DNA of 64,000 nucleotides from Candidatus Poribacteria bacterium (GTDB lineage: Bacteria; Poribacteria; WGA-4E; WGA-3G). Position 1 is the first letter of the stretch. Each line of letters begins with the position of its first letter. A model generated the notes under the pieces. It did not search any database. It was not told where the DNA came from and saw only the letters and a list, made by a program, of their open reading frames with translations. The translations under genes were made by a program, and so were the position numbers. Location of the stretch: NCBI GenBank assembly GCA_022828145.1, contig JAJEJA010000061.1, forward strand, positions 66,081-130,080, in the 5' to 3' direction. Positions 6,694-49,968 of this stretch are shown in pieces.

Positions 6694-7653
6694 ATGCCTG
6701 CTAATCTACCACCGACCTACTATAAACTAAAGCATCAGCATGAATCGGCAAAGTCAGATGAGGAACGACTCGGTCTATTAGAAGAAATGCTAAGTATTGT
6801 TCCAAAGCACAAAGGGACTGAAAAGGTCGTCTCCGATTTACGAAAACGTATTGCTGTTTTGAAGAAAGGTGCTTCAGGTAAATTAGGAAAGGGTGGCGGT
6901 AGAAAAGGCTATAGCGAACATATACCAAAACAGGGGGCCGGACAGATCGTCATGTTCGGTCCACCCAATAGTGGTAAATCACAGATTCTTGCAAAATATA
7001 CAAAGGCAAAATCGGAAGTATCTCCAACACCCTACACCACCACAGTACCAGTCGTCGGTATGTTACAATATGAGAATATACAGTTCCAACTTATTGACAC
7101 CCCTTCAATTATGCAGGATTTTATTGCTTCTACGGTATTGACACTCCTTAGAAATTGCGATCTCTGTCTAACTATTATCAGTTTAGCAAGTGATAGTCTA
7201 TTAGACGAGTTGGAACTCGTGCTGACGACATTGAATGAACAGAACGGAGATGCAGATGAACCGACCATACCATTTTTGGTTGCAGCAAATCAGTTGGATG
7301 CTGAAGGTGCAAGGGACAGATTAGAAATCTTACAAGAGTTTTATGAGGAAAAGTTCAAAATCTATCCAGTATCAGCGGAAACAGGTGATGGTATAGATGC
7401 GCTGTTTAAAGGCATATACGACACACTAAATATCGTCCGAGTCTATCCAAAAGCACCGGGTAAGAAGTTAGAACGAGATGATCCAATTGTACTGCCCAAC
7501 GGATCAACTGTGCTTGATGCTGCGATGGGATTACACAAAGATTTTGAGGATTTCAAACTTGCTCGGATATGGGGTCCTAATTGGCACGATGGACAACCTG
7601 TTAGCCGAAATGATGTCATCTATGATGGAGATGTCGTAGAATTTCATCTGTAA
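6694..7653 (+). CDS. P-loop GTPase with a C-terminal TGS domain. It is DRG/Obg-like, with an N-terminal lysine-rich helix as in DRG proteins.
   Basis: G1 motif GPPNSGKSQ, G3 motif DTPS and an NKxD-like NQLD are present. The TGS-like C-terminus reads RVYPKAPGKK...PIVLPNGSTVLDAA...DVVEF. Confidence 0.65.
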   Translation: MPANLPPTYYKLKHQHESAKSDEERLGLLEEMLSIVPKHKGTEKVVSDLRKRIAVLKKGASGKLGKGGGRKGYSEHIPKQGAGQIVMFGPPNSGKSQILAKYTKAKSEVSPTPYTTTVPVVGMLQYENIQFQLIDTPSIMQDFIASTVLTLLRNCDLCLTIISLASDSLLDELELVLTTLNEQNGDADEPTIPFLVAANQLDAEGARDRLEILQEFYEEKFKIYPVSAETGDGIDALFKGIYDTLNIVRVYPKAPGKKLERDDPIVLPNGSTVLDAAMGLHKDFEDFKLARIWGPNWHDGQPVSRNDVIYDGDVVEFHL

Positions 7654-7687
7654 TTATAAACTACTATATTATTAAATTGGAGAAAAT

Positions 7688-7936
7688 GTGAACATCAAAA
7701 TTCAGAACCTTGAAGGGAAAGATGGAATCTGTGTCTCAAAGAATCTGTTGGATTCAGCACAGATCAAAGCAGATGAGGAAGTACAAGTTACCATTCAGAA
7801 TGGTAGAATAATTGTTGAATCTGCTGCTAAAGCAATCAAGCGGATTAAATTAAGGGAATTAGTATCAAAAATGCCTAAAGACTATAAACCTATGGAATTA
7901 GATTGGGGTAAACCTGTAGGAAAAGAGGTGTGGTAG
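7688..7936 (+). CDS. mazE: MazE/AbrB-family antitoxin-like protein (SpoVT/AbrB fold), with a GTG start.
   Basis: The C-terminal LDWGKPVGKEVW matches the MazE signature IDWGEPKDKEVW. It is 82 aa long. No mazF follows. Confidence 0.6.
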   Translation: MNIKIQNLEGKDGICVSKNLLDSAQIKADEEVQVTIQNGRIIVESAAKAIKRIKLRELVSKMPKDYKPMELDWGKPVGKEVW

Positions 7937-7973
7937 ATGCCTGATTATAGATTATTTCCTCTTTGACAGACAC

Positions 7974-9575
7974 ATGATAAAATTAAATAAATCTCCCTTT
8001 AAATATCTTGTCTACTCGTGCAGCATACACATGATTATTCTATTATGTCTATGGTGGTTGAATCCTATTGTTGAAACCCCACTGCCTGATGACGGTTCTT
8101 TAGAAGTGGAACTTTTTAACTTACCTCGAACTAACTTAATTAGACCACCTAAACCACTTGATGAACCGATTAAGACTAAGACTGAACCCACTGTTGAAGT
8201 AAAGGTTGAAATACCACATATCCCAAAACCAACGATAAACCTGCAATCGGAATGGAATGTTAGTGCCAGTGATAGTAACAGTAAGGGCGAAACGCATACT
8301 GTAAGGGATATACATAAGACGAATACTGGCAAACCGAAACCTGATGGCGTTTCTAAGCACAATTACGCACGCAGATCACCTATACATGTTTCCGATCTAC
8401 AAAAGATTCGCACAACACCCGAAAGTGTCAATAGAGAAACGTTGTCGTTATCACGTTCAACAGGAACAGGAAATGAGGATATTCAAGAAGATACTAAAAA
8501 AGTAGAATTTGATATAAAGAACACATTAAGCGGTATTTCACCATCCGTGAATGCCCCAAATGTACAGTATAAAAGCAGGCGGGGTGATGCATTACGTGCA
8601 ACCAGCATAGGTAATAATTGGGGTGGAAGTAGTAGCTCAGGCGGCACTAAAACTACAGGGTCATACATCAAGATGATGAAAGCTATCGCTGATGAACTCA
8701 TCAAAGCAAACACTTCAGAAAAGGTTGATCTCATACTATTAATTGATGAAACTGCAAGTATGGTTGACAATATACGCGGCATACGTGCCTATTTCGATCT
8801 GATTTTTGACGCTTTTGAAAGAAACAGAATTGATGTTAACTATGGACTGGTGACATTTACAGACAGAACTAAAACCTTCGGATTTACTGATGACTTCGGC
8901 AAATTCAATAACTGGATGTTTAAAATAGATGTAGACCATGGGGGGGACCTGTCAGAAGCGGGATTAGATGCACTGATGGATGCTGTGAATACGTTCAAAT
9001 TCCGTAAGAATGCACAGCGACATTTCATTTATGCCAGTGATGCTGCGTTTCATGATGCAGATTACGATGGGAAATCCCGCTATAGCCTGGATGAGGTAAT
9101 TGCGAGCCTACAAAAGAATGCTATCAGGGTTGATGTGATTGGACTCGACTATCTCCCAATCAAGCAAATTGCTCTTGCAACAGAGGGGACTTGGCGTGCT
9201 ATACCAGGGAAGGGTTACCTTGAATATGTTCCCCCGATAACACAGACCGAGAAAATGCTGTCAAAATTAGGGACACTTAGCATTGATGGTAATACGCATG
9301 TGTCCGATATGATAAATGTGCATATTAACAATCCACCACGTCCTAAGCAGTTAACACTCACTTGGAAGGTACTGAATCCATTAGGTGAAAGGTGCTACGG
9401 TCCCTTTACACAGGAGACAGAGATACCAAATGATACGTCAACGATTATTAGATTAAATCCAAAACTCGATCAGGCTTCTTTTCAAACCATACCTGGAACC
9501 TACACGGTCATTTATAAACTGGAAAATGATAGAGGACACAAGAGTATTCTAAGGAGAGCCATTAAATATCAATGA
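7974..9575 (+). CDS. Membrane-anchored von Willebrand factor A (vWA) domain protein.
   Basis: N-terminal TM helix. The vWA domain carries a MIDAS-like DETAS motif (LILLIDETASM...GLVTFTD...GGDLSEAGLDAL). Confidence 0.6.
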   Translation: MIKLNKSPFKYLVYSCSIHMIILLCLWWLNPIVETPLPDDGSLEVELFNLPRTNLIRPPKPLDEPIKTKTEPTVEVKVEIPHIPKPTINLQSEWNVSASDSNSKGETHTVRDIHKTNTGKPKPDGVSKHNYARRSPIHVSDLQKIRTTPESVNRETLSLSRSTGTGNEDIQEDTKKVEFDIKNTLSGISPSVNAPNVQYKSRRGDALRATSIGNNWGGSSSSGGTKTTGSYIKMMKAIADELIKANTSEKVDLILLIDETASMVDNIRGIRAYFDLIFDAFERNRIDVNYGLVTFTDRTKTFGFTDDFGKFNNWMFKIDVDHGGDLSEAGLDALMDAVNTFKFRKNAQRHFIYASDAAFHDADYDGKSRYSLDEVIASLQKNAIRVDVIGLDYLPIKQIALATEGTWRAIPGKGYLEYVPPITQTEKMLSKLGTLSIDGNTHVSDMINVHINNPPRPKQLTLTWKVLNPLGERCYGPFTQETEIPNDTSTIIRLNPKLDQASFQTIPGTYTVIYKLENDRGHKSILRRAIKYQ

Positions 9576-10741
9576 AAAAAAAGATTTTTGATCACTGCCA
9601 ACGCCATTACGATGACATCGTCTCAATTCGACGTGATATTCATCAACATCCTGAAATAGGGTTTGAGGTAGAACGCACTGCAGGAATTGTTGCAGATGCA
9701 CTAAACAGACTCGACATTCCGGTTAACACCGGTATTGGTAGAACCGGCGTTGTCGGAAATCTTGATGTTCCTGGCGCAACGAAACGGATAGCACTACGCG
9801 CAGATATGGACGCATTGCCTATTCAGGAACAGACAGAAGTGCCGTTCAAGTCTAAGTTTGATGGGAAAGCACATCTATGTGGACATGACGCACATACAGC
9901 CATGTTAATCGGAACGGCAAGGGTATTGACTGAACTTAGAAGCAGCCTCAAAACGCATATCCGTCTGATTTTTCAACCGTGTGAGGAGTCATATCCCGGC
10001 GGCGCACAAGCTATGATCAACGATAGCGTTTTAAACGATGTGGACGAGATATACGGGTTTCATGTTTTCCCTCTATATCCTGTCGGTCATTATGCTACAT
10101 GCAAGGGACCTATGCTTGCACAATCAGATACCTTTGAAATAACTATCACAGGTAAAGGTGGACACGCTGCATTCCCACATCTGACAGTTGATCCTGTGCT
10201 ATTAGGTGCGCAGTTCGTCAATGCTGCACAATCTATTGTTTCAAGAAACGTCAACCCTTTGGATTCAGCAGTCGTAAGTATTACAGAGTTCCACGCGGGA
10301 GATGCTAAGAATGTTATTCCCCCATCAATCACATTAGGGGGAACGGTTCGAACTTTAAATCTGACAGTCCAGAAAAGAATAATAACACAGTTAGAGAATC
10401 TCCTGAAAGGAATAACGACTGCCAACGATGCCAGTTACCGTTTTGATTACCAAGAAGGATGTCCAGTTACATTTAACCATGACCCGTGTGTTGAGCGTGT
10501 TCTCTCGTCCGCAAGAACATTAGTGGGTGAAGAGAATACCATCTTCCCAATTTCCCCCATACTCGGGGGTGAGGACTTTGCATGTTATTCGCAGCAGACA
10601 CCGGCATGTTTTGTTATGGTCGGGGCAGGAAATGAGCAGAAAGGTATCGTAAACATGTGTCATCATCCACAATTTGATATTGATGAAAAATCAATGCTAT
10701 ACGGTATGGCATTGTCAGTGTCTATTGCCCTAAAAGGATAA
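9572..10741 (+). CDS. M20D-family amidohydrolase (hippurate hydrolase / N-acyl-L-amino-acid amidohydrolase type).
   Basis: Motifs IHQHPEIGFEV, CGHDAHTAMLIG and GGEDFA are present. Confidence 0.8.
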   Translation: MKKKIFDHCQRHYDDIVSIRRDIHQHPEIGFEVERTAGIVADALNRLDIPVNTGIGRTGVVGNLDVPGATKRIALRADMDALPIQEQTEVPFKSKFDGKAHLCGHDAHTAMLIGTARVLTELRSSLKTHIRLIFQPCEESYPGGAQAMINDSVLNDVDEIYGFHVFPLYPVGHYATCKGPMLAQSDTFEITITGKGGHAAFPHLTVDPVLLGAQFVNAAQSIVSRNVNPLDSAVVSITEFHAGDAKNVIPPSITLGGTVRTLNLTVQKRIITQLENLLKGITTANDASYRFDYQEGCPVTFNHDPCVERVLSSARTLVGEENTIFPISPILGGEDFACYSQQTPACFVMVGAGNEQKGIVNMCHHPQFDIDEKSMLYGMALSVSIALKG

Positions 10742-36548: not shown

Positions 36549-36575
36549 AAGTAGTAGGCACACTCCGTGTGCCGT
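36549..36575. repeat. 27-bp element AAGTAGTAGGCACACTCCGTGTGCCGT with a perfect 7-bp stem (GGCACAC/GTGTGCC). It sits downstream of the fusion gene and may be a terminator.
   Basis: An identical copy lies at 46178-46203. Confidence 0.5.
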
Positions 36576-40658: not shown

Positions 40659-40823
40659 TTGCTTTAACGTGAGTTTGATAATTAAATCAATATGCGTTGT
40701 AGGTTGGGTTGAGGCACGAAACCCAACATGTATTGTTCTATAATGGGGCAAGATGTTGGGTTTCGTGCCTCAACCCAACCTACATATTTAGTTGTTCTGA
40801 TTTATCAAACTCACGTTGCTTTA
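40659..40823. mobile_element. MITE-A copy 2. It has 16-bp TIRs (AACGTGAGTTTGATAA / TTATCAAACTCACGTT) around a hairpin with about 31-bp arms (GTAGGTTGGGTTGAGGCACGAAACCCAACAT).
   Basis: Perfect TIRs and a long internal inverted repeat seen in the sequence. Confidence 0.55.
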
Positions 40824-41063: not shown

Positions 41064-44042
41064 CTAATCGTGCCTTTGGGCTGGGGGAGACGGTTGTTCA
41101 AGATACACCTGATAGAGATGTTGCTTGAGTTCGGCATTAATTTCAGGTTTAGATAATTTCTTATAGAGTTCAAGTTTGGTGTTGACGTAATCCAATAAAA
41201 ACTCATCAAACACCTTATAAAACCACTCTTCTTTGCTGCTCTCCGAATTATCCCCTTCAATCACCAGTCGAAGTGCTTCGTCAGCGTTCATTTTTTGTTG
41301 AATAGTCTCAATATCAACCTTATCTTCCTCTGTAAACTCTGTCTGATATGCCTCATTCAGAGCCTGAATGATATTAGAGAGCAGATCTTGTTCCGGTTCT
41401 CTGCTCGGTTGGACACCACTACCAATCCCTTCAACCTCGCTATCTTCTGGTTCGAGAATTATTTGTTGGTTCTCATAAATTTTCGCCACACGCAACGAAT
41501 CCAAGTTTACAGAATAGATGACATCTTGTAGGTTAGGATTATCCCGTTTCGGCAGCTTCTTGTTGAGGCTGCGTCCAAAGACGTACAATTTTTCTAACGC
41601 CACATCTGTGAAAGTAATCAGTTGTGAGATGTATCCGTAGAGACGAATATAACTTTGCAAGGCAGAACGAAACTTCTCTTTTTCGTCTGTTTCATTCTCC
41701 ATCCATTTCTCAACAACGTCATCAAGAATGCCTTGTAGAAGTTCGTCGGGTTGATCAGCATCATAAAAGACTTCACAAAATCGGTTAATAATATCAGCAT
41801 CGTAGAGATCAAAATCGCCTAACTGACTCTGTAGGTCATACAAGCGATTCGGGTCGGTTTCCTCCGCGAGCGTTGTCGTCTGATAGTATTGTTGGAATGC
41901 GGCTTGTATCTGTTCAGGGTCATTCACAAAATCGAGTACCAGCGTATCTGTCTTACCGGGGGCGACGCGGTTCAGGCGGCTTAAGGTCTGGACACACTGC
42001 AGCCCGTCTAACTTCTTATCAACATACATTGTCTGTAGCATCGGCTCATCAAAACCGGTTTGGAATTTATTCGCGACAATCAGAATACGATACTGTGGAC
42101 TCTTGAAGGTGTCTGCAATTGAAGCTTTTGGTGGTAATTCGTTCATGCTGTTTTCCGTATAGTCCACTTCGCTGTCGGTGTCGTGAACGGTATCACTGAA
42201 TGCTACCAGACATCCGTAGGGTAGGTTCATCGCCCGCATCTGTTTATCAAATTCTAACTTGTATTTGACACAGTGCAGTCGGGACGGCGTGACCAGCATC
42301 GCTCGCCCCTTACCTTCTATCGTTTTCTCCGTGTGTTCTATGAAGTGTTCCAACATAATCTTGGTTTTCTTCTCAATGCTGGTCGGTTGCAGGTCGACGT
42401 AGCTGGTCAGTGTCCGCAGCGTGCGTGCCTTATCGTACTCTTTATCCTCCGACACGCTTTTGACCAGTTCAAAATATCGTTTAAAGGTAGTGTAATTCTG
42501 CAGCACGTCAAGTGTGAAGCCTTCACTGATACTTTGACGCATGGAATAGGTATGGAACGGAACAAACTTCCCATTCACATTCTTCTGTCCGAACAGTTCT
42601 AATGTCTTATTCTTCGGTGTGCCGCTGAAACCGAAATAGGAGATATGATCCTGCATCCTGCGCTGTTCCATCTGCTTGATAATTCGAGCGTCTATACCCG
42701 ATATTTCTTCGGTGTCATCTTCGTCTTCGGTTTCTTCTTCAATCCCTTTTGAAAGCGAAACTCTGAGGTCTTTTGCAGCTTCACCGCTCTGTGAGGAGTG
42801 CGCTTCGTCAATAATCACTGCAAAGGTCTTGCTATTAAGCGCGCCGATTGTTTCCGCAATCACACTGAACTTCTGAATCGTGGAAATTATGATGCTTTTG
42901 CCGGATTCAAGAAAACCTCTGAGTTGTGCTGAATTCTTGTCAACGGCATGAACCACACCCTCGACCTGTCCTACCTGCTTGATTGTATCTTGCAGTTGCT
43001 TATCAAGTACGAGTCGATCTGTCACCACGATAATAGAGTCGAAAATCCGATGTGTCATGTCCGAAGAACTGTATAAATGCGTTAGCAGGTGCGCTAACCA
43101 TGCAATTGAATTGGATTTACCGCTCCCTGTAGCGTGTTGGATTAGGTATTTCTGTCCGACATCCTTCGCTTTAATATCTGTTTTCAAATCACGGATTACA
43201 CTCAGCTGATGGTATCGCGGGAAAATAAGCACTTTATGCGTTATATCTTTCACGTCGTCGATTCTGTGGTCGTAAACCTTCTCTGTGACCTCCTGCTCAT
43301 GAATAAAGTTGTTGATTAACTCCACCAGGTTATCGGGTTGCAGGATGTCCTCCCACAAGTAGGCGGTCTTGTGACCTTTCCTATTCACAGGATTTTCTAT
43401 GTCCTTGTTAAACGGAAAGAACCGTGTCTCATCCCCTTGTAATCGGGTTGTCATTGAAACCTTTTCGTTACCCACCGCAAAGTGAACCAGACACCGCTTG
43501 AATTTGAACAACGGTTCATTCTTATCTCGATCTGTCCGATACTGTTTCTCCGCATCTGTGAAAACTTGACCGGTAAGGCTGTTTTTCAGTTCCATTGTCA
43601 CTAACGGCAAACCGTTGAGGAACAACACCATATCCAGCGATTTCTCGTTCCGCTGTGCGTAATACAGTTGTCTTATTAAAGAGAATCTGTTTTGCGAGTA
43701 AAGTTTCTGATGGATGGGGTTCATGCCACTTGATGGTAGGAAGTAAGTCAGGTCAAAATGACACCCTCTATCCGCAATGCCTTTCCGTAGCACGTCCAAC
43801 ACTCCGCGGCGATCAATCTCTCTGCTTATGCGGTCACGGAGTTTAGTGGGAGTATCTGCTCCATATTGCCGTTCCAGTTTCTGATATACCTTTAGTTGTG
43901 TGTCTTTAATAAACTGGAGCGTCTCATTCGGTATTAGACAGAGAGATTTATCATAATCGGAAGACAGCAGAGATTGGTAACCCGATTGATTCAGGTGTGC
44001 TTCAATGTGATCTTCAAATTTTTCTTCTGTATACTTCGGCAT
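41064..44042 (-). CDS. hsdR: Type I restriction enzyme R subunit (HsdR).
   Basis: HsdR N-terminus, SF2 helicase motifs (ATGSGKS, DEAH) and about 990 aa in length. Confidence 0.9.
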   Translation of the reverse strand: MPKYTEEKFEDHIEAHLNQSGYQSLLSSDYDKSLCLIPNETLQFIKDTQLKVYQKLERQYGADTPTKLRDRISREIDRRGVLDVLRKGIADRGCHFDLTYFLPSSGMNPIHQKLYSQNRFSLIRQLYYAQRNEKSLDMVLFLNGLPLVTMELKNSLTGQVFTDAEKQYRTDRDKNEPLFKFKRCLVHFAVGNEKVSMTTRLQGDETRFFPFNKDIENPVNRKGHKTAYLWEDILQPDNLVELINNFIHEQEVTEKVYDHRIDDVKDITHKVLIFPRYHQLSVIRDLKTDIKAKDVGQKYLIQHATGSGKSNSIAWLAHLLTHLYSSSDMTHRIFDSIIVVTDRLVLDKQLQDTIKQVGQVEGVVHAVDKNSAQLRGFLESGKSIIISTIQKFSVIAETIGALNSKTFAVIIDEAHSSQSGEAAKDLRVSLSKGIEEETEDEDDTEEISGIDARIIKQMEQRRMQDHISYFGFSGTPKNKTLELFGQKNVNGKFVPFHTYSMRQSISEGFTLDVLQNYTTFKRYFELVKSVSEDKEYDKARTLRTLTSYVDLQPTSIEKKTKIMLEHFIEHTEKTIEGKGRAMLVTPSRLHCVKYKLEFDKQMRAMNLPYGCLVAFSDTVHDTDSEVDYTENSMNELPPKASIADTFKSPQYRILIVANKFQTGFDEPMLQTMYVDKKLDGLQCVQTLSRLNRVAPGKTDTLVLDFVNDPEQIQAAFQQYYQTTTLAEETDPNRLYDLQSQLGDFDLYDADIINRFCEVFYDADQPDELLQGILDDVVEKWMENETDEKEKFRSALQSYIRLYGYISQLITFTDVALEKLYVFGRSLNKKLPKRDNPNLQDVIYSVNLDSLRVAKIYENQQIILEPEDSEVEGIGSGVQPSREPEQDLLSNIIQALNEAYQTEFTEEDKVDIETIQQKMNADEALRLVIEGDNSESSKEEWFYKVFDEFLLDYVNTKLELYKKLSKPEINAELKQHLYQVYLEQPSPPAQRHD

Positions 44043-44045
44043 CGT

Positions 44046-45302
44046 CTAAACCTCGTTTCGGACATCTATCTTGCCTGTCACCGCTTCAGAGATGAGGGAT
44101 TGACGGTATTCCTTGAGGAGTTGGATTTTTTGATTTTCTGTGGCTATCAGTTCGTCAATCTGTTTAGTCTTACAGTCAAGGAAGTTAGCGATTTGGGTTT
44201 GTTCTATCATAGATGGATAGGGGACAATGATATCCTTAAAATCATCAAATCGTAGTTCCCATTGGCTCGTTCTAATTCCGTAAGACAACCTATTAAACTC
44301 TTGAATGTAAGAATCAGACCTAAGTAAATGATGGAAGTATTTGCCAAAAAAATGTTGCTTAGGTTTACACACAGTATAAGCAGGGCTAACAATTCCTCTA
44401 TATTCAGAGATGCCTAAAGAACCTTGCCAACATTTCATTTTGTTAAACACGAAATCCCCAGGTTCAACGAGTTTATAGTTTGATATGTCCTCTGATATTC
44501 TGTTGTAATTATCGTCTCTGCTGTCTCGCTTAATGACCCCGTAATCTCTATAAACAGATAAATTGATTTCTCCAGATGTATTCTTTATATGCTTTCGTTC
44601 AAACAGATAATTACACTTTACTGTATCCCAATGCTTTGGTATCTCTCCAATCCACTCCACGCCCGACGGTTTCATCTCCACATTTGGGTCAAGTCCCTTT
44701 GTTACTGTCTGATTTATCAGTGCGGTGCGTTGTTCTTGTAGGAGTTCTGTCTGTCGTTCTTTGATGCGGACGAGTTCGTCAATCTGTTCGGTTTTGCGGT
44801 CAAGGAAGTTAGCGATTTGTAATTTCTCATGATCTAAAGGTATAGGGATTTTTGCATTCAGAATATCATCAACTGCCGTTCGTGGCATTTTTGCCCCGTA
44901 AGATATAGAATCGCAGTATTCAATGAAGCGATTGGATTGCATCAAATAGAAAAGATATTTGCCCATACATTGTAAAGTAGGTCTTATGACTATCATTTCA
45001 CCAAGAGAGTACCCATCATATTTGGCAAAGACTACCTTGTTGAGATAGACACGAATTTTGTTAAATAACACATCCCCAGCTTGAAATTTCACACCCACCG
45101 CATCATAGGAACTATAAAAATCAAGGACTTTACCGGTTTTCGATTCAACATTTTCAGGCGAAATTTTTATAGCATCTGTCTCTGGTGTAGATTTTTCACT
45201 TACAAGGGTTGCGACATGTTTTATTCTCTCTATCTTCCAATGTGCTGGTATCTCTCCAAGCCACTCTACGCTGCTCTTTTTATATTCGGGGTAACGCTTC
45301 AT
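44046..45302 (-). CDS. hsdS: Type I restriction-modification specificity subunit (HsdS), with two target-recognition domains.
   Basis: Two conserved coiled-coil spacer repeats (LDRKTEQIDELV... and LDCKTKQIDELI...). It lies 3 nt upstream of hsdR. Confidence 0.85.
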   Translation of the reverse strand: MKRYPEYKKSSVEWLGEIPAHWKIERIKHVATLVSEKSTPETDAIKISPENVESKTGKVLDFYSSYDAVGVKFQAGDVLFNKIRVYLNKVVFAKYDGYSLGEMIVIRPTLQCMGKYLFYLMQSNRFIEYCDSISYGAKMPRTAVDDILNAKIPIPLDHEKLQIANFLDRKTEQIDELVRIKERQTELLQEQRTALINQTVTKGLDPNVEMKPSGVEWIGEIPKHWDTVKCNYLFERKHIKNTSGEINLSVYRDYGVIKRDSRDDNYNRISEDISNYKLVEPGDFVFNKMKCWQGSLGISEYRGIVSPAYTVCKPKQHFFGKYFHHLLRSDSYIQEFNRLSYGIRTSQWELRFDDFKDIIVPYPSMIEQTQIANFLDCKTKQIDELIATENQKIQLLKEYRQSLISEAVTGKIDVRNEV

Positions 45303-45464
45303 AATTCTAATATCTTTTTGTCAGAATCTCGGATTATTCGGTAAACACACCTCAGTTAACATATCTGGCATAGATGGGCGCGGAAAGTGTTTATGTCTGT
45401 GAAACTTTTGATGGCGAATTCTTTGTGATGTTCTTGTAATTTCGTAGTGTGTCTCCTTTCAAAA

Positions 45465-45603
45465 TCGTACCATATGGTACGAAATTTCGTACCGTGGTAC
45501 GATTTGGTACAATGGCGGTGGCGTTAGTCGCAGTAAGGTTTTGTAGCGTGTTTTTTGACAGAGTCAAAATTTTAAAATTCCTTTTTGGTACGAAATTCTC
45601 GCC
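45465..45603. promoter_or_regulatory. Cluster of GGTACGA/TCGTACC palindromes about 165-300 bp upstream of hsdS: TCGTACCATATGGTACGA, TCGTACCGTGGTACGA and a further GGTACGA half-site. A TTTTGACAGAGTCAAAA palindrome is also present.
   Basis: Perfect palindromes seen directly in the sequence. A regulatory role is inferred. Confidence 0.35.
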
Positions 45604-45959
45604 ATGTTGAAATATGGATAAAAAAATCGGTTTTTTTCTGATATTGCGATCCTTTCTGGTCGTATTGTATAATAGCATTGTCAACACCTTTTTTGTACAA
45701 ACTTTTCGTTAGTAGTATATTAACATATAGAATTACATTTGTCAAGTTAAATATGAAAGGGGTGTGTAAAGTTTTTGTTCCTCTATTTGTCTGAATCGCG
45801 GATTACACGGAGGACACGCCAGTTATATACATCGGCGCGGAAGGGGTTTCTGGATCATTATATGACTTTGATCGGCTGCAAAGAAGCACAATCTAACAGA
45901 ATGTGGCAGAATACGCGTTTGGTATTCTGCATTGGTTAGGAAATTGCACCTACCTTTTT

Positions 45960-46287
45960 GTCTGAACCAGGATTTACAGGATTACCATGATGATTTACAG
46001 GATAAGAGTTTGTGCAATCTTTTTTTGTAGGGACGGGGTATCCTTGTCCGTTGTATCATTTTTTTAGTCCCTAATGAAGTTTAGGCAATTTTGTGAGGTT
46101 AGGAAGAAATCAACGGTATGAATGCCATTTAGGCATTCCCCGCCTCGTCAGCAGCGCGGTGAACCTGCCTTATGCAAAGTAGTAGGCACACTCCGTGTGC
46201 CGTATGTTAAAAGGTTCTTCAATGGAAGAATTTCTTATCCTGAAAATCCTGGTCAAATCTGGAAATCCTGTAAATCCTGGTTCAGAC
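45960..46287. mobile_element. MITE-D, a 328-bp element with perfect 24-bp terminal inverted repeats (GTCTGAACCAGGATTTACAGGATT). It contains the 46178-46203 hairpin element.
   Basis: The TIRs are exact reverse complements of each other. A related solo end lies at 3085-3142. Confidence 0.55.
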
Positions 46288-46358
46288 AAGTAACCAGAAC
46301 TTTACACACCCTCTTATAGGTCAGGACTTATAACGCCAATACCTCATTCAGCAAACCT

Positions 46359-46874
46359 TCACTTTTCCGTTCCAGTACTCCGATGCAATCGTTGAATATC
46401 AGCTTCGCAAATAAACGCTATTGTCACACCATTTTGACGGAATGCGTCACGGAAATCCAACCACTTACTATCTACTGCTTGCAGGATAGGCGTTTTTTCT
46501 GGATGTGTCATCGCAACAGCGATAAATTTCCGGTCATCTGGATCAAAGTCATTCAATGCTGGATCGTTTGGGAACTCCTCAAACTCGTTATCTGAACCAT
46601 TGACAGGTGTAATCGAAACTAAATCGCACTGTGTATCCTTGTTTCTCAAGAGCCATAAGAGAAACCTATCGCCAGCACCCGGTTCTCCACTGGAACGGAG
46701 ATTTCTTAGGTACTCACTAAGGATTATCCACATATCATCAAGCACTAATTTCTCCTCGCCACGGATAATCCTTTCAAGCCGATTGATACATGTATCTACA
46801 CAATTAGGAGAGGCTTGCAACGATTGCCCGTTGGCGACCACTGCGACATTTGTATCTACAATTACCACCATCAT
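46359..46874 (-). CDS. PIN-like small nuclease, partner of the upstream AAA ATPase.
   Basis: N-terminal VIVDTNVAV (PIN motif I). GEEKLVLDD is a candidate acidic motif. DRKFIAVAM is a D..hhA.A-type motif III. It overlaps the ATPase gene by 4 nt. Confidence 0.45.
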   Translation of the reverse strand: MMVVIVDTNVAVVANGQSLQASPNCVDTCINRLERIIRGEEKLVLDDMWIILSEYLRNLRSSGEPGAGDRFLLWLLRNKDTQCDLVSITPVNGSDNEFEEFPNDPALNDFDPDDRKFIAVAMTHPEKTPILQAVDSKWLDFRDAFRQNGVTIAFICEADIQRLHRSTGTEK

Positions 46875-48226
46875 TTCATCACTTTCCGCCGCTGCATTTC
46901 AACTTTTGTCTTTTCCACTAAATCACCAATATCATCGCCAAAGAAGTCTTGGGGCCAATTCAGAATGTTGCCGTATTCATCAACCTTGAGTCGTTCAATT
47001 TCTGATGTGCCATCGTTGATCTGACAGAAATAGAGTGCTGTGTCATCCGCTGCAATTTGCTCTTCTGCGATCCGTCGTTGCAGACGGTGAAGCAGAAGTG
47101 CACTGTGGCTTTCAAGGATAATCTGGACGTTTCGATTTTTGACGACATCAATGAGAACATCTGCCAAACCTGCTTGTACTTTCGGATGCAGGTGAATTTC
47201 TGGTTGTTCAAGAATTACGGTTGATTTTTCTGGGACATAGTAACAAAGGACGAGTACAGGCAAGAGTTGTGAAACACCAAAACCGACATCAGTAATTAGC
47301 ACCTCGGAACTGTTTCGACTCTTTTTCACACGGAATTCATAATCCTTTCGGTTCTCGGCGATAGGTTCAAGTGAAAAAGAATAAATTAGTTCCATTTTTT
47401 GTAACCATTCTAAAATTCGCTGTTCTATGGGTTTATGAGAACGTTTCACATTGACGAGTCGGGATGAAGTCAATCCTTCTGCACGCGCTGCAAGCAGGGC
47501 AGGGATGGCTTCTTCTCCACTGATACCGACATCTTGAGGTCGTTCTCCAGACCAAATATAACTGCGTCTTGGATACTCGCGAAGTGGACCGAGATATGCT
47601 ATATCAGAAAATAGGTTTTCAAAGGCGAGTACGAAGTCTGAAAGAAAACCAAGATTCTGGTAGTATCCACTAACTTCGTCTGGAAAACCGTAACATTTTA
47701 CGGGAGGGGGTAAATTCCACGGACGTCCGGGGTTTCGTATTGCTTCATAGCCTTCATGAATTAGTTCGTACTGATTCTTTCCGCTTTTCTTTTTCTTCAT
47801 GTCTCGTTTCATTCCAAATTTGCTGAGTTTATTCTTGTAATGGAAATACTCAACGAGAGGACGGTCGTTTTCTTCGCGGATTTCTGTCTGGAACGTAAGG
47901 TTGTTCCCTTGATCAAACAGACTTCTATTAATAGGCAACCGCTTAGGTAGATTCCAAGATAAATCTATCTGGAGTGTTAAATCTGTGTTATGTGTATAAA
48001 GCACATCATGAAAGGTGCCGAAGTCAACAAGGGAACGGTCATCTCCAAAGTGTAGAACTCTATTTCGGTCAGGAGATTCTACAGTCTGCATGAGCATCAA
48101 CAGCACCTGTATGATACTGGTTTTACCGGAACTATTCGCGCCGAAAAGTCCAGTTAATGGCGCAAACTGTAACGTATCCGTATCTTGCCATGATTTAAAA
48201 TTTCGTGCTCTGAGTTCGGTAATCAT
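46871..48226 (-). CDS. AAA_21/ABC-type ATPase (SMC-like, OLD/RloA/AbiL-like family).
   Basis: Walker A motif GANSSGKTS. Walker B/signature-like ILEQPEIHLHP. H-loop ILESHS. It overlaps hsdM by 4 nt. Confidence 0.75.
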   Translation of the reverse strand: MITELRARNFKSWQDTDTLQFAPLTGLFGANSSGKTSIIQVLLMLMQTVESPDRNRVLHFGDDRSLVDFGTFHDVLYTHNTDLTLQIDLSWNLPKRLPINRSLFDQGNNLTFQTEIREENDRPLVEYFHYKNKLSKFGMKRDMKKKKSGKNQYELIHEGYEAIRNPGRPWNLPPPVKCYGFPDEVSGYYQNLGFLSDFVLAFENLFSDIAYLGPLREYPRRSYIWSGERPQDVGISGEEAIPALLAARAEGLTSSRLVNVKRSHKPIEQRILEWLQKMELIYSFSLEPIAENRKDYEFRVKKSRNSSEVLITDVGFGVSQLLPVLVLCYYVPEKSTVILEQPEIHLHPKVQAGLADVLIDVVKNRNVQIILESHSALLLHRLQRRIAEEQIAADDTALYFCQINDGTSEIERLKVDEYGNILNWPQDFFGDDIGDLVEKTKVEMQRRKVMK

Positions 48227-49968
48227 AATCCCAATACCTCATTCAGCAAACCTTCACTTTTCCGTTCCAGTGCCAACATTTCATCGGCAATTTCCTTGAG
48301 TGAACGCAGTGGCGTGTACTGATAGAAATACCGATTGAAGTTGATTTCGTAGCCAATCTTATCCTTTTTTCTGTCTATCCAACTATCAGGCACGTGCGGT
48401 TTTACTTCCCGTTGGTAGTAATCCTCAATGTTCTCTGTAAGAGGAACGCGTTCATGGTCTCGCAGCTTGGTATCCGGTTTCGGATTGCCTTTCTTATCCG
48501 GGACAACGATTTCACTCTCCTCTCCAAAAAAATCCTGCTTTTCAACGAGTGGTCTCTCAATTGTCACTTTCGTGTAACCGAAAAAGTCGTTTGGATAGAT
48601 TCTGCAGTGTTCAGTTTCTTCAAAGTTGGTGTACAGTTCAGCTATCTGACGGATATGACTATCGGAGATAAATGCATTCTTGTCCCCGAGATTTCTTTTC
48701 ATAGTATCATAGAAGTCAACGGCATTGATGAGTTGTATCTTACCTTGTCGCGCTTCCGATTTTTGATTTGTTAAAATCCAAATGTAGGTTGCGATACTGG
48801 TGTTAAAGAAAAGTTTCTCAGGTAGTGCAACAATACACTCTAACCAGTCGTTTTCAATAACCCATTTTCGGATTTCACTTTCACCACTACCGGCATCACC
48901 CGTAAAGAGTGGTGATCCGTTAAAGACAATTCCGATGCGACTCCCGCGGTTCTCCATCTTGGAGAGCATGTGTTGTAGAAACAGCAACGCCCCATCAGAG
49001 GAACGAGGCGTACCCTTTGAGAACCTGCCATTGGGATTCTCCGCTTCGTTTTTCACCACATTTGCATCAGATTTCCAGCTGACACCAAAGGGGGGATTTG
49101 TGATCATATAATCAAATCGTTCACCCTGAAATTGGTCGTTAGAAAGGCTTGAACCGTGTCGGATAGCACCAGGGTCTTCACCTGTAATTAACATATCTGA
49201 CTTGCAGATTGCATAAGTCTGCGGGTTCAGTTCTTGACCAAACAACTGAATTTTAACATCGGGATTGATCTGTTCGCGAAAGTAATTCTTCCCAATCGTC
49301 AACATGCCTCCTGTTCCGCAGCACGGGTCGAAAATCTTGCGGACAAGTCCCTGCCCGCGTAAGTCCTCTCGGTGCTCGGCAAAAAGTAAGGAGACCAGGA
49401 GCTGCACGACATCCCGCGGTGTGTAGTGTTCTCCACTGGTTTCGTTAGACATCTCCGAAAACTTGCGGAGCAATTCCTCAAAGACCAGTCCCATCGTGCG
49501 GTTGTCTACCTTAGCGGGATGCAGGTCAACTTCGGTAAATTTTTCGCAGAAAGTGTACAACCGATCACTTTGGTGCAACCGCTCAATCAACTGGTTGAGA
49601 TTGAAGTTCTTAATAATATCCTGAACATCTTGGCTGAAACTGTTGAGATAGTGTTGTAAGTTGTGATGGATATTATTCGGGTCATCCTTTAGGCGAGAGA
49701 GGTCATACTTGGAGGTGTTGTAGAAGTTTGCATTTGTCTCTCTCAGAATAATCGGGGGTAGCAAGTCTTCAGATATTGCACCACTGAATCGGTTGTAAGT
49801 ATCAATGGCTTTCTCTTTTCGGTCATTCTCGTCTAAGATGCAGTCCAATCTACGCAGCACTAAGAACGGGAGGGTGATGTCTCCGTATTCGTGCGGTTTG
49901 AACAATCCTCTGAGAACATCATCTGCCACATTCCAAACGAGATTTGCTAATTCTTGGTAATTTGCCAT
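48223..49968 (-). CDS. hsdM: Type I restriction-modification N6-adenine DNA methyltransferase (HsdM).
   Basis: HsdM N-terminal domain. SAM-binding motif DPCCGTGGML. Catalytic NPPF in ITNPPFG. Confidence 0.9.
   Translation of the reverse strand: MANYQELANLVWNVADDVLRGLFKPHEYGDITLPFLVLRRLDCILDENDRKEKAIDTYNRFSGAISEDLLPPIILRETNANFYNTSKYDLSRLKDDPNNIHHNLQHYLNSFSQDVQDIIKNFNLNQLIERLHQSDRLYTFCEKFTEVDLHPAKVDNRTMGLVFEELLRKFSEMSNETSGEHYTPRDVVQLLVSLLFAEHREDLRGQGLVRKIFDPCCGTGGMLTIGKNYFREQINPDVKIQLFGQELNPQTYAICKSDMLITGEDPGAIRHGSSLSNDQFQGERFDYMITNPPFGVSWKSDANVVKNEAENPNGRFSKGTPRSSDGALLFLQHMLSKMENRGSRIGIVFNGSPLFTGDAGSGESEIRKWVIENDWLECIVALPEKLFFNTSIATYIWILTNQKSEARQGKIQLINAVDFYDTMKRNLGDKNAFISDSHIRQIAELYTNFEETEHCRIYPNDFFGYTKVTIERPLVEKQDFFGEESEIVVPDKKGNPKPDTKLRDHERVPLTENIEDYYQREVKPHVPDSWIDRKKDKIGYEINFNRYFYQYTPLRSLKEIADEMLALERKSEGLLNEVLGL

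Follow-up and report, generated by a model that had tools for sequence, protein, structure and literature searches.

The closest described relative of the gene pair analysed here is HEC-03 (Hma-embedded candidate 03), which was reported by Payne, Hughes, Fineran and Jackson in 2024 as an ABC ATPase accompanied by a VapC-like PIN protein and embedded in an Hma system (bioRxiv 10.1101/2024.01.29.577857). According to the same preprint, the tested representative lowered plaquing in E. coli MG1655 without R-M, and protection by this representative required both genes. Another related system is Menshen (Millman et al. 2022), for which AlphaFold 3 predicts that the NsnB ATPase docks through its DUF3696 tails onto the PIN-like part of the NsnC protein (PMC12065111).

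In the window, i.e., the whole 64,000-nucleotide stretch of Candidatus Poribacteria DNA that was analysed, the two genes located between hsdM and hsdS of a type I R-M operon are a HEC-03 member, since both encoded proteins match HEC-03 PADLOC models over the full length. The ATPase matches PDLC04148 (1.6e-142, 473.7 bits; protein positions 1-449, model positions 1-453 of 458), and the PIN protein matches PDLC04147 (2.6e-32, 110.1 bits; protein positions 2-158, model positions 1-153 of 159). The preprint uses the designations A and B the other way round from these PADLOC-DB v2 models. The initial annotation saw no obvious counterpart of the pair among named systems, which is contradicted by these two matches. 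It had also named the case in which its novelty claim would fall, namely that the pair is simply a known variant, and this is what was found: HEC-03 has already been described and phage-tested, so the arrangement is known and does not represent a new system. The PADLOC run on the region that the annotation had proposed matched, in addition to the HEC-03 models, MTase_I, Specificity_I, and REase_I, and its view of the pair as an accessory defence module within a type I R-M operon holds, with HEC-03 lying between hsdM and hsdS. Coordinates of all features are given in Table 1.

Table 1. Features of the HEC-03-containing type I R-M locus (positions are those of the window)
Feature	Coordinates	Strand	Evidence or remarks
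hsdM (581 aa)	48223-49968	-	Pfam N6_Mtase 6.3e-65 and HsdM_N 4.1e-21; PADLOC MTase_I 1.7e-245
ATPase gene, HEC-03 ABC-type (451 aa)	46871-48226	-	PADLOC, Pfam, motifs
PIN gene, HEC-03 (171 aa), putative metal-dependent nuclease effector	46359-46874	-	PADLOC, AlphaFold2, Foldseek
Spacer, non-coding, 1,056 nt	45303-46358	.	Interspersed MITE-like repeats
Inner MITE-like element	45958-46289	.	Between 30-nt inverted arms; hairpin GGCACACGGAGTGTGCC at 46185-46201
Promoter-like site TTGACA-17 nt-TAATAT, TG extension	45717-45745	-	About 415 nt upstream of hsdS start codon
hsdS (418 aa, two target-recognition domains)	44046-45302	-	Pfam Methylase_S, two stretches; PADLOC Specificity_I 7.5e-114
hsdR (992 aa), helicase-nuclease restriction subunit	41064-44042	-	Pfam HSDR_N, ResIII, SWI2_SNF2, T1R_D3-like; PADLOC REase_I 1.3e-51

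All five open reading frames lie on the minus strand in the order hsdM, ATPase, PIN gene, spacer, hsdS, and hsdR, exactly as initially annotated. HsdM, HsdS, and HsdR are encoded together, and all three have both Pfam and PADLOC matches. Their NCBIfam equivalog scores, however, are under the cut-offs (e.g., 2.5e-66 for HsdR against TIGR00348, under the curated cut-off), which points to a divergent type I R-M subfamily. The first ~160 codons of hsdS (44820-45302) are unalignable with the closest relative, locus L001, and TRD1 has therefore been swapped. Both 4-nt overlaps claimed for the operon are seen directly in the sequence as ATGA junctions: one is shared by the hsdM stop and the ATPase start (...GGATTATGATTACC...), and the other by the ATPase stop and the PIN start at 46871-46874 (...GAAATGATGGTG...). 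The ATPase-PIN cassette probably shares a transcript with hsdM and is probably linked to it by translational coupling. A long hairpin was also observed downstream of hsdR; its Rfam matches are to plant miRNAs only and were dismissed as meaningless.

The spacer, previously noted as a repeat-laden stretch of about 1 kb, indeed carries inverted as well as direct repeats. Besides several direct repeats, it has 30-nt inverted arms (45958-45987 and 46260-46289) that are 97% complementary, and outer arms at 45760-45782 and 46289-46311. Parts of the spacer recur between genes at numerous places, both in related Poribacteria loci and in other parts of the window, and neither of the ORFs within it (98 aa and 65 aa) matches a Pfam family. 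In related loci the slot of the spacer is filled by other defence genes, which shows that the position between hsdM and hsdS is, in these genomes, a hotspot that gathers varied defence genes. As for the promoter-like site listed in Table 1, it is a weak candidate for an internal promoter of hsdS-hsdR, based on a consensus match only, and shuffled sequence contains sites of this kind at least as often as the region does.

According to Pfam, the ATPase contains AAA_15 (5.7e-24) and AAA_21 (1.5e-22), two of the families that had been proposed for an HMM search, as well as DUF3696 (1.1e-10) in the tail at residues 391-436. Among other PADLOC models, NsnB of Menshen matches with 2.4e-63, being 260 bits behind the HEC-03 model, followed by a partial match to PARIS AriA (5.3e-26) and weak, partial matches to AbiLi (5e-14), GajA (1e-12), and Old (2e-10). 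Walker A (G29-x4-G34-K35-T36), the Q-loop (Q47), the signature GxG-x-SQ (315-320), and the H-loop (H374) were all located, which together with the Pfam matches confirms the ABC/AAA_21 architecture of the initial annotation. The motif it described as DEPE-like does resemble DEPE; the actual Walker B, however, is L-E-Q-P-E (339-343), in which the Asp-Glu dyad is replaced by Glu-Gln. This replacement suggests that ATP binding rather than turnover may drive the protein. Conservation was examined in 89 homologues. The N-terminal part (1-75) and the C-terminal core (271-390) are conserved and form one cluster each. The insert region between them (~76-270), in contrast, is hypervariable, falling into 28 clusters at 50% identity among the same 89 sequences. 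Tandem copies carry different inserts in every case.

The PIN protein has no match in Pfam or NCBIfam, and its fold was assessed by structure prediction. From a shallow alignment of 35 sequences with identities of 70% or more, AlphaFold yielded a pLDDT of 67 with 1 of 5 models usable, and a fold search with this model was uninformative. With an alignment of 74 more diverse sequences, the AlphaFold2 model reached a pLDDT of 94.1 and a pTM of 0.89. Its top Foldseek matches are PIN proteins, namely 1o4w (probability 1.00), the VapC structure 7vwo (0.98), PAE0151, HARP, and SMG6, with modest E-values for the top PIN/VapC matches. A profile search of PDB sequences returned only SecA and actinin, both spurious, and no homologues of the PIN protein were found in the phage collection. 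Candidate active-site residues D7, E54, D114, and D135, plus D46, are kept in 142 or more of the 144 aligned sequences or, where only 140 have a residue, in all of these (conservation was scored on 143 representatives, whose median identity to the window protein is 39%). The protein also has an insertion of ~25 residues (about 87-111), and its cysteines are largely conserved. The confident model, the PIN structures among the best matches, and the near-invariant acidic residues agree with the initial assignment of the 171-aa protein to the PIN fold; judging by the residues kept, the domain is putatively catalytically competent and would be a metal-dependent nuclease effector.

The pair is intact throughout the 80 related loci: in 77 of them, which are all those whose contig reaches far enough upstream, the PIN gene is immediately preceded by an ATPase homologue, nearly always with an overlap of 1 or 4 nt. 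Type I hsd genes similar to those of the window accompany the pair in 40 loci, with the full M-ATPase-PIN-S-R order in 26 of these 40. In 2 loci the pair is located between type III-like Mod and Res, in at least 23 it stands alone among housekeeping genes at two sites, and 15 are other or short. Metagenomic contexts obtained with a non-Poribacteria query are stand-alone in 5 of 7 cases. The gap between hsdM and the ATPase ranges from 0 to 4 kb in relatives, and the junction is not conserved; even L001, which is 93% identical, has a 1-kb insert there. A recurrent pattern of genes encoding 516 and 414 aa, the pair, then 206 and 897 aa was considered as a second type I R-M family and rejected: Pfam reports citrate-synthase-like, isocitrate dehydrogenase, NIPSNAP, and MutS matches, meaning that these neighbours are housekeeping genes.

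Tandem arrays occur, and several ATPases are sometimes stacked with one PIN. Across homologues, divergence of the PIN protein is tied most closely to that of the DUF3696 tail (rho 0.82-0.84); for the core, rho is 0.58-0.63, and for the insert 0.53-0.54. A PF09414 RNA ligase gene comes directly after the PIN gene on two unrelated plasmids, which hints at an RNA target. No homologue of this ligase was detected in the window or the Poribacteria loci, and a third ORF overlapping the PIN gene in one locus (L092) proved to be unrelated to the plasmid RNA ligases.

It is likely that the HEC-03 pair is an autonomous cassette of an ATPase and a competent PIN protein, carried in a variable cargo slot of the R-M operon; the frequent stand-alone loci argue for such an independent module rather than a PrrC-like dependant of the R-M complex. 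For its action we infer the following scheme. The ATPase would hold the PIN protein via the C-terminal DUF3696 tail, as predicted for the homologous NsnB-NsnC of Menshen, and a phage component may be sensed by the hypervariable insert, acting as a recognition surface. This step, coupled to ATP binding, would free or activate the PIN nuclease. Its target is most likely RNA, by analogy with VapC-type PINs, and cleavage would stop phage multiplication, possibly at the cell's cost. An abortive-infection type of action is plausible, and the R-M system and the cassette would act as independent defence layers at a shared locus.

Three other readings were weighed against this one. PrrC and PARIS are precedents for defence triggered when a phage counters restriction, and by analogy the pair could be latent on the Hsd complex or sense Ocr/ArdA, firing when a phage disables restriction. 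The overlap of the ATPase start codon with the hsdM stop codon, the distant and partial relation of the ATPase to PARIS AriA, and the location of 40 of the 80 loci inside type I R-M operons, with 2 more between type III-like Mod and Res, are consistent with such a guard. However, R-M genes are missing from the vicinity in at least 23 loci and 5 of 7 metagenomic contexts, the hsdM-ATPase junction is unconserved, with the gaps and the L001 insert noted above, and the partner is a PIN protein instead of a fused anticodon nuclease or a TOPRIM protein. Moreover, published HEC-03 defended R-M-free E. coli (bioRxiv 10.1101/2024.01.29.577857). This reading is thus unlikely, and the PrrC-like or anti-anti-restriction mechanism raised in the initial annotation is, as an obligate one, unsupported in view of the stand-alone loci and the R-M-free experiment. 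A version for members embedded in the type I R-M operons of Poribacteria, in which the operon would be more than a landing site, is rather unlikely as well: their ATPases, with swappable inserts and maybe co-expressed with HsdM, would guard against anti-restriction proteins in a PARIS-like manner by RNA cleavage, the reversibility of which is suggested by the RNA-ligase-linked variants. If true, it would provide R-M systems with a modular guard layer whose sensors can be swapped.

The VapC-like fold of the PIN protein is also what would be expected if it were a toxin with the ATPase as its antitoxin, the two serving mainly to stabilise the R-M locus or its mobile carrier DNA instead of defending against phage. 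The annotation of AAA_21 describes a putative AbiEii or type IV TA family, and homologues are found on conjugative plasmids beside Hok/Gef and AbiEii, as well as beside ParE/Phd and VapBC in a metagenomic contig. A VapB-like antitoxin, however, is absent, and the ATPase is large, keeps all nucleotide-binding motifs, and has a diversifying insert typical of sensors. The anti-phage activity of published HEC-03 (bioRxiv 10.1101/2024.01.29.577857) speaks against this reading too, which makes it decidedly improbable, although toxin-antitoxin behaviour and abortive infection are mutually compatible. Least probable, to the point of being hardly credible, is a reduced Menshen made of NsnB and a shortened NsnC after loss of NsnA. 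The ATPase does match NsnB and has the same ABC head and DUF3696 tail, and NsnC begins with a PIN-like domain (PMC12065111). Nevertheless, no ParB/DUF262 (NsnA) gene adjoins the pair in the window or in related loci with scanned neighbours, the PIN protein is without a C-terminal effector domain, and it keeps the catalytic acidic residues, which are absent from all major NsnC PIN-like families (PMC12065111). The 260-bit lead of the HEC-03 model over NsnB likewise speaks against a reduced Menshen.

In comparison with other known systems, PrrC and Campylobacter rlo share with the pair the position between type I hsd genes, an ABC-type ATPase domain, and a probably RNA-targeting effector. In PrrC, however, the anticodon-nuclease domain is part of one and the same polypeptide, which is regulated by EcoprrI, whereas here two proteins with a PIN effector are encoded, and unlike PrrC and rlo the cassette is often found without R-M genes nearby. 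Neither PrrC nor RloC is represented among the best 25 of 139 PADLOC matches, and the C-terminus of the ATPase is DUF3696. PARIS, Gabija, Septu, OLD, and AbiL also combine an OLD-type ABC ATPase (AAA_15/AAA_21), serving as sensor or scaffold, with a paired or fused nuclease. Their nucleases are TOPRIM/DUF4435 (AriB, GajA, OLD), HNH (PtuB), or RloB-like (AbiLii), in contrast to the PIN used here. Pfam, PADLOC, and NCBIfam report no HNH, RloB-like, or TOPRIM domains in the ATPase or the PIN protein, and the latter has no match to TOPRIM or DUF4435, by which AriB of PARIS is recognised. VapBC has in common with the pair the PIN fold and conserved acidic residues, with VapC structures among the best structural matches. 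Instead of an upstream VapB, however, the 451-aa ATPase gene is present, and the insertion and the largely conserved cysteines described above distinguish the PIN protein.

Menshen is similar in both components: NsnB has an ABC head, a degenerate Walker B, a GxG signature, and a DUF3696 tail, and a PIN-fold protein is encoded immediately downstream of the ATPase. Its tail-to-PIN docking, itself predicted, is the best available model for the ATPase-PIN pair. Menshen differs in the NsnA (ParB-DUF262 + ParBDB) sensor, which the pair lacks: DUF262 is found in none of the five locus proteins, the locus contains no further ORF of appreciable size, and the neighbours of stand-alone homologues are housekeeping genes rather than NsnA. 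Furthermore, NsnC combines a catalytically inactive N-terminal PIN-like domain with a C-terminal nuclease (PMC12065111), while the PIN here is a single domain with D-E-D-D kept and is the likely effector, and the Q-loop Gln kept in this ATPase is Arg in Menshen NsnB.

The nearest counterpart remains HEC-03, in which an ABC ATPase gene likewise precedes, on one strand, the gene for a small VapC-like PIN protein, the two being embedded within another DNA-modification-based defence system. The host system is a Candidatus Poribacteria type I R-M operon here and Hma in the published case. The hypervariable ATPase insert, the tandem arrays, the sister architecture of Menshen NsnB-NsnC, and the plasmid RNA ligase linkage are new here. 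Thus, HEC-03, known from one preprint, is extended to sponge-symbiont Poribacteria and to type I and type III-like R-M systems as hosts, and the comparative data offer testable handles: the insert as a candidate sensor, the DUF3696 tail as a candidate docking site, a PIN with an intact active site, and the RNA ligase linkage.

According to the PADLOC-DB models of HEC-03 (Hma-embedded candidate 03), the gene pair between hsdM and hsdS belongs to an already catalogued anti-phage system. Both proteins are matched over their full length (1.6e-142 for the ATPase and 2.6e-32 for the small PIN protein), and the pair shows every testable defining feature of HEC-03, namely an ABC ATPase accompanied by a VapC-like PIN protein, defined as embedded in Hma systems (Payne, Hughes, Fineran and Jackson, bioRxiv 10.1101/2024.01.29.577857). 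The same preprint reports HEC-03 as one of seven candidates reducing plaquing in E. coli MG1655 without R-M systems, an effect that needed both genes, and notes that embedded genes are also frequent in BREX, DISARM, and type I R-M systems. Thus, the initial annotation had the architecture right, but it was wrong to see no obvious match to a named system, since HEC-03 has been described and both of its models hit over the full length. What makes the locus valuable is its comparative hints on an uncharacterised mechanism rather than any new system. As for nomenclature, HEC-03A in PADLOC-DB v2.0.0 is the PIN protein (PDLC04147, 159 positions) and HEC-03B the ATPase (PDLC04148, 458 positions), while in the preprint the two letters are the other way round, with A for the ATPase and B for the PIN protein (bioRxiv 10.1101/2024.01.29.577857), which is a naming trap for annotators.

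An ORF scan and direct sequence reading bear out the layout noted initially: five co-directional minus-strand genes, with ATGA overlaps at both the hsdM/ATPase and ATPase/small-protein junctions. HsdM, HsdS, and HsdR all carry their expected Pfam domains and give strong matches to the type I models of PADLOC (1.7e-245, 7.5e-114, and 1.3e-51). The type I system is complete but divergent, because the NCBIfam equivalog scores of the Hsd proteins fall below the cut-offs. The base composition of the locus is not unusual. A perfect 32-bp hairpin (window 40696-40784; RNA fold -61 kcal/mol, z = -12.8) follows the hsdR stop codon at a distance of about 280 nt; it is possibly a terminator or else a palindromic repeat element, and its Rfam plant-miRNA matches are spurious.

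Coordinates of the operon genes in the window and of the variant arrangements in related loci
Feature	Sequence	Positions	Strand	Length
hsdM	window	48223-49968	-	581 aa
ATPase	window	46871-48226	-	451 aa
small protein (PIN)	window	46359-46874	-	171 aa
hsdS	window	44046-45302	-	418 aa
hsdR	window	41064-44042	-	992 aa
three ATPase-PIN pairs between type III-like Mod and Res	L070	4976-10543		
two ATPase-PIN pairs	L078	6839-10537		
two ATPases, then single PIN gene	L022, L025, L053, L065	about 7370-10500		
ATPase-PIN-RNA ligase	L089, Aeromonas salmonicida pAsa9-like plasmid	7566-10191		
ATPase-PIN-RNA ligase	L091, Tistrella mobilis pTM2	7676-10133		
slot cargo, varied defence-type genes	L008	10616-13978		
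slot cargo, varied defence-type genes	L011	10706-14482		
slot cargo, varied defence-type genes	L012	10766-12637		
slot cargo, varied defence-type genes	L028	10529-11866		
slot cargo, varied defence-type genes	L002	11008-11889		

Pfam reports AAA_15 and AAA_21 on the ATPase, plus DUF3696 at its C-terminus. Across 89 aligned homologues taken from the related loci, Walker A (G29-x4-G34-K35-T/S), the Q-loop (Q47), the GxG-x-SQ signature (315-320), Walker B, and the H-loop (H374) are conserved. Walker B reads L-E340-Q341-P-E, with E in 89/89 and Q in 85/89 sequences; therefore Glu-Gln replaces the usual Asp-Glu dyad, and the earlier description "DEPE-like" is only approximately right. For NsnB, the ATPase of Menshen, a similarly degenerate dyad (Glu-Asn) is reported along with a GxG signature (PMC12065111). 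At 50% identity, residues 76-270 fall into 28 clusters among the 89 sequences, and the N-terminal and C-terminal core parts form one cluster each. Judged by sequence, the ATPase is a conserved chassis with a hypervariable middle. In tandem copies within a locus the insert types always differ, the pattern that would be expected of a diversifying sensor surface. In the annotation of the Acinetobacter soli plasmid pAS843-2 (L090 7591-8956), two CDSs, one named "AAA family ATPase" and the other a 61-aa "DUF3696 domain-containing protein", make up the HEC-03 ATPase; either a frameshift or a split introduced by annotation has probably set its tail apart from its head.

The small protein has 188 relatives in a scan of one genome per species. 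At E <= 1e-10, its family amounts to 1,182 representative clusters among the 1.84 billion representatives of a library; it occurs on 12 plasmids, and no member was found in phage records. The best 80 of the 188 loci come almost entirely from Candidatus Poribacteria MAGs, the closest being L001 (94% protein and about 93% DNA identity); very probably, therefore, the window itself stems from the genome of a poribacterium, a sponge symbiont. In 77 of these 80 loci the PIN gene directly follows an ATPase homologue, and nearly all of them show an overlap of 4 or 1 nt; the remaining 3 are truncated there by a contig edge. Window-like hsd genes occur within 10 kb in 40 of the 80 loci (26 with the complete M-ATPase-PIN-S-R order). 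The pair stands alone between isocitrate dehydrogenase and NIPSNAP/MutS in 18 and at a second housekeeping site in 5, lies between a type III-like Mod methylase and Res helicase in 2 (L070 and L080), and has other contexts or short contigs in 15. A non-Poribacteria (Thermoflexus) query returned seven metagenomic contexts (5 stand-alone, 1 beside hsdR, and 1 with an unknown third ORF), and on the Acinetobacter soli plasmid the pair sits within a helicase/N6-methylase (Hma- or DISARM-like) neighbourhood. Because hsd, type III-like, stand-alone, and plasmid contexts are mixed, the pair is an autonomous mobile cassette, often but not necessarily inside modification-based defence operons. The stand-alone loci and the activity published for a host free of R-M both argue against an obligate, PrrC-like dependence on the Hsd complex.

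Regarding the PIN protein, C25, C29, C83, and C156 are largely conserved (137, 123, 110, and 139 of 144 aligned, respectively) and are candidates for a metal site or redox feature. PIN divergence follows that of the DUF3696 tail (rho 0.82-0.84) more closely than that of the core (0.58-0.63) or insert (0.53-0.54); between L004 and the window, the tail is 95%, the PIN protein 84%, and the insert only 28% identical. This co-divergence fits tail-to-PIN docking of the kind predicted for NsnB and its PIN-fold partner NsnC (PMC12065111), although plain genetic linkage would produce the same signal. Directly 3' of the PIN gene, two unrelated plasmids from Aeromonas and Tistrella carry a PF09414 RNA ligase (E about 1e-33; 57% identical to each other). 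This linkage gives circumstantial support for an RNA substrate: the three-gene variant suggests RNA as the target of the PIN protein and damage that may be open to repair. PIN-gene fragments (24-49% of full length) near intact modules (L001 2949-3050, L013 15125-15373, and L061 11311-11496) are probably remnants of earlier copies, a sign of locus turnover.

In related type I loci, the hsdM-to-ATPase distance is 0-4 kb and the PIN-to-hsdS distance 0.03-6 kb. Cargo in the latter slot varies by genome (Schlafen/AlbA_2, STAND-like NTPase, HEPN_AbiU2, DUF4365, DUF4268, and DUF2971), and several large slot ORFs (e.g., 839 aa in L010) have no Pfam match. In the window, nothing but 1,056 nt of non-coding DNA carrying nested inverted repeats fills this slot, and pieces of this DNA reappear between genes elsewhere in the window and in Poribacteria genomes. 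A short palindrome, GGCACACGGAGTGTGCC, is present at window 46185-46201 and 36557-36573, as well as intergenically in L008, L032, L040, L049, L054, L063, and L073, and shows the behaviour of a REP-type interspersed repeat. A promoter-like TTGACA-17-TAATAT precedes hsdS by about 415 nt, but matches of this kind are no commoner there than in shuffled sequence. In comparison with L001, the window is without a 1-kb hsdM-ATPase insert and, behind the PIN gene, 2.9 kb of cargo. In hsdS, the first target-recognition domain is unalignable (window 44820-45302 vs L001 13459-13990), whereas the remainder of hsdS and the entire hsdR align with this 93%-identical locus, which indicates a domain swap and therefore a different recognition sequence. 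The spacer most plausibly represents MITE-like repeat debris at a recombination hotspot and no part of the module.

Among known systems, Menshen (NsnA-NsnB-NsnC) has its ATPase architecture in common with the pair. In contrast to Menshen, however, the pair lacks NsnA, and its PIN protein is unfused and predicted to be active; it is thus a sister architecture of Menshen, not a member. PARIS, Gabija, Septu, OLD, and AbiL share with the pair only the general ABC-ATPase-plus-nuclease logic, and PrrC and the rlo genes only the genomic position.
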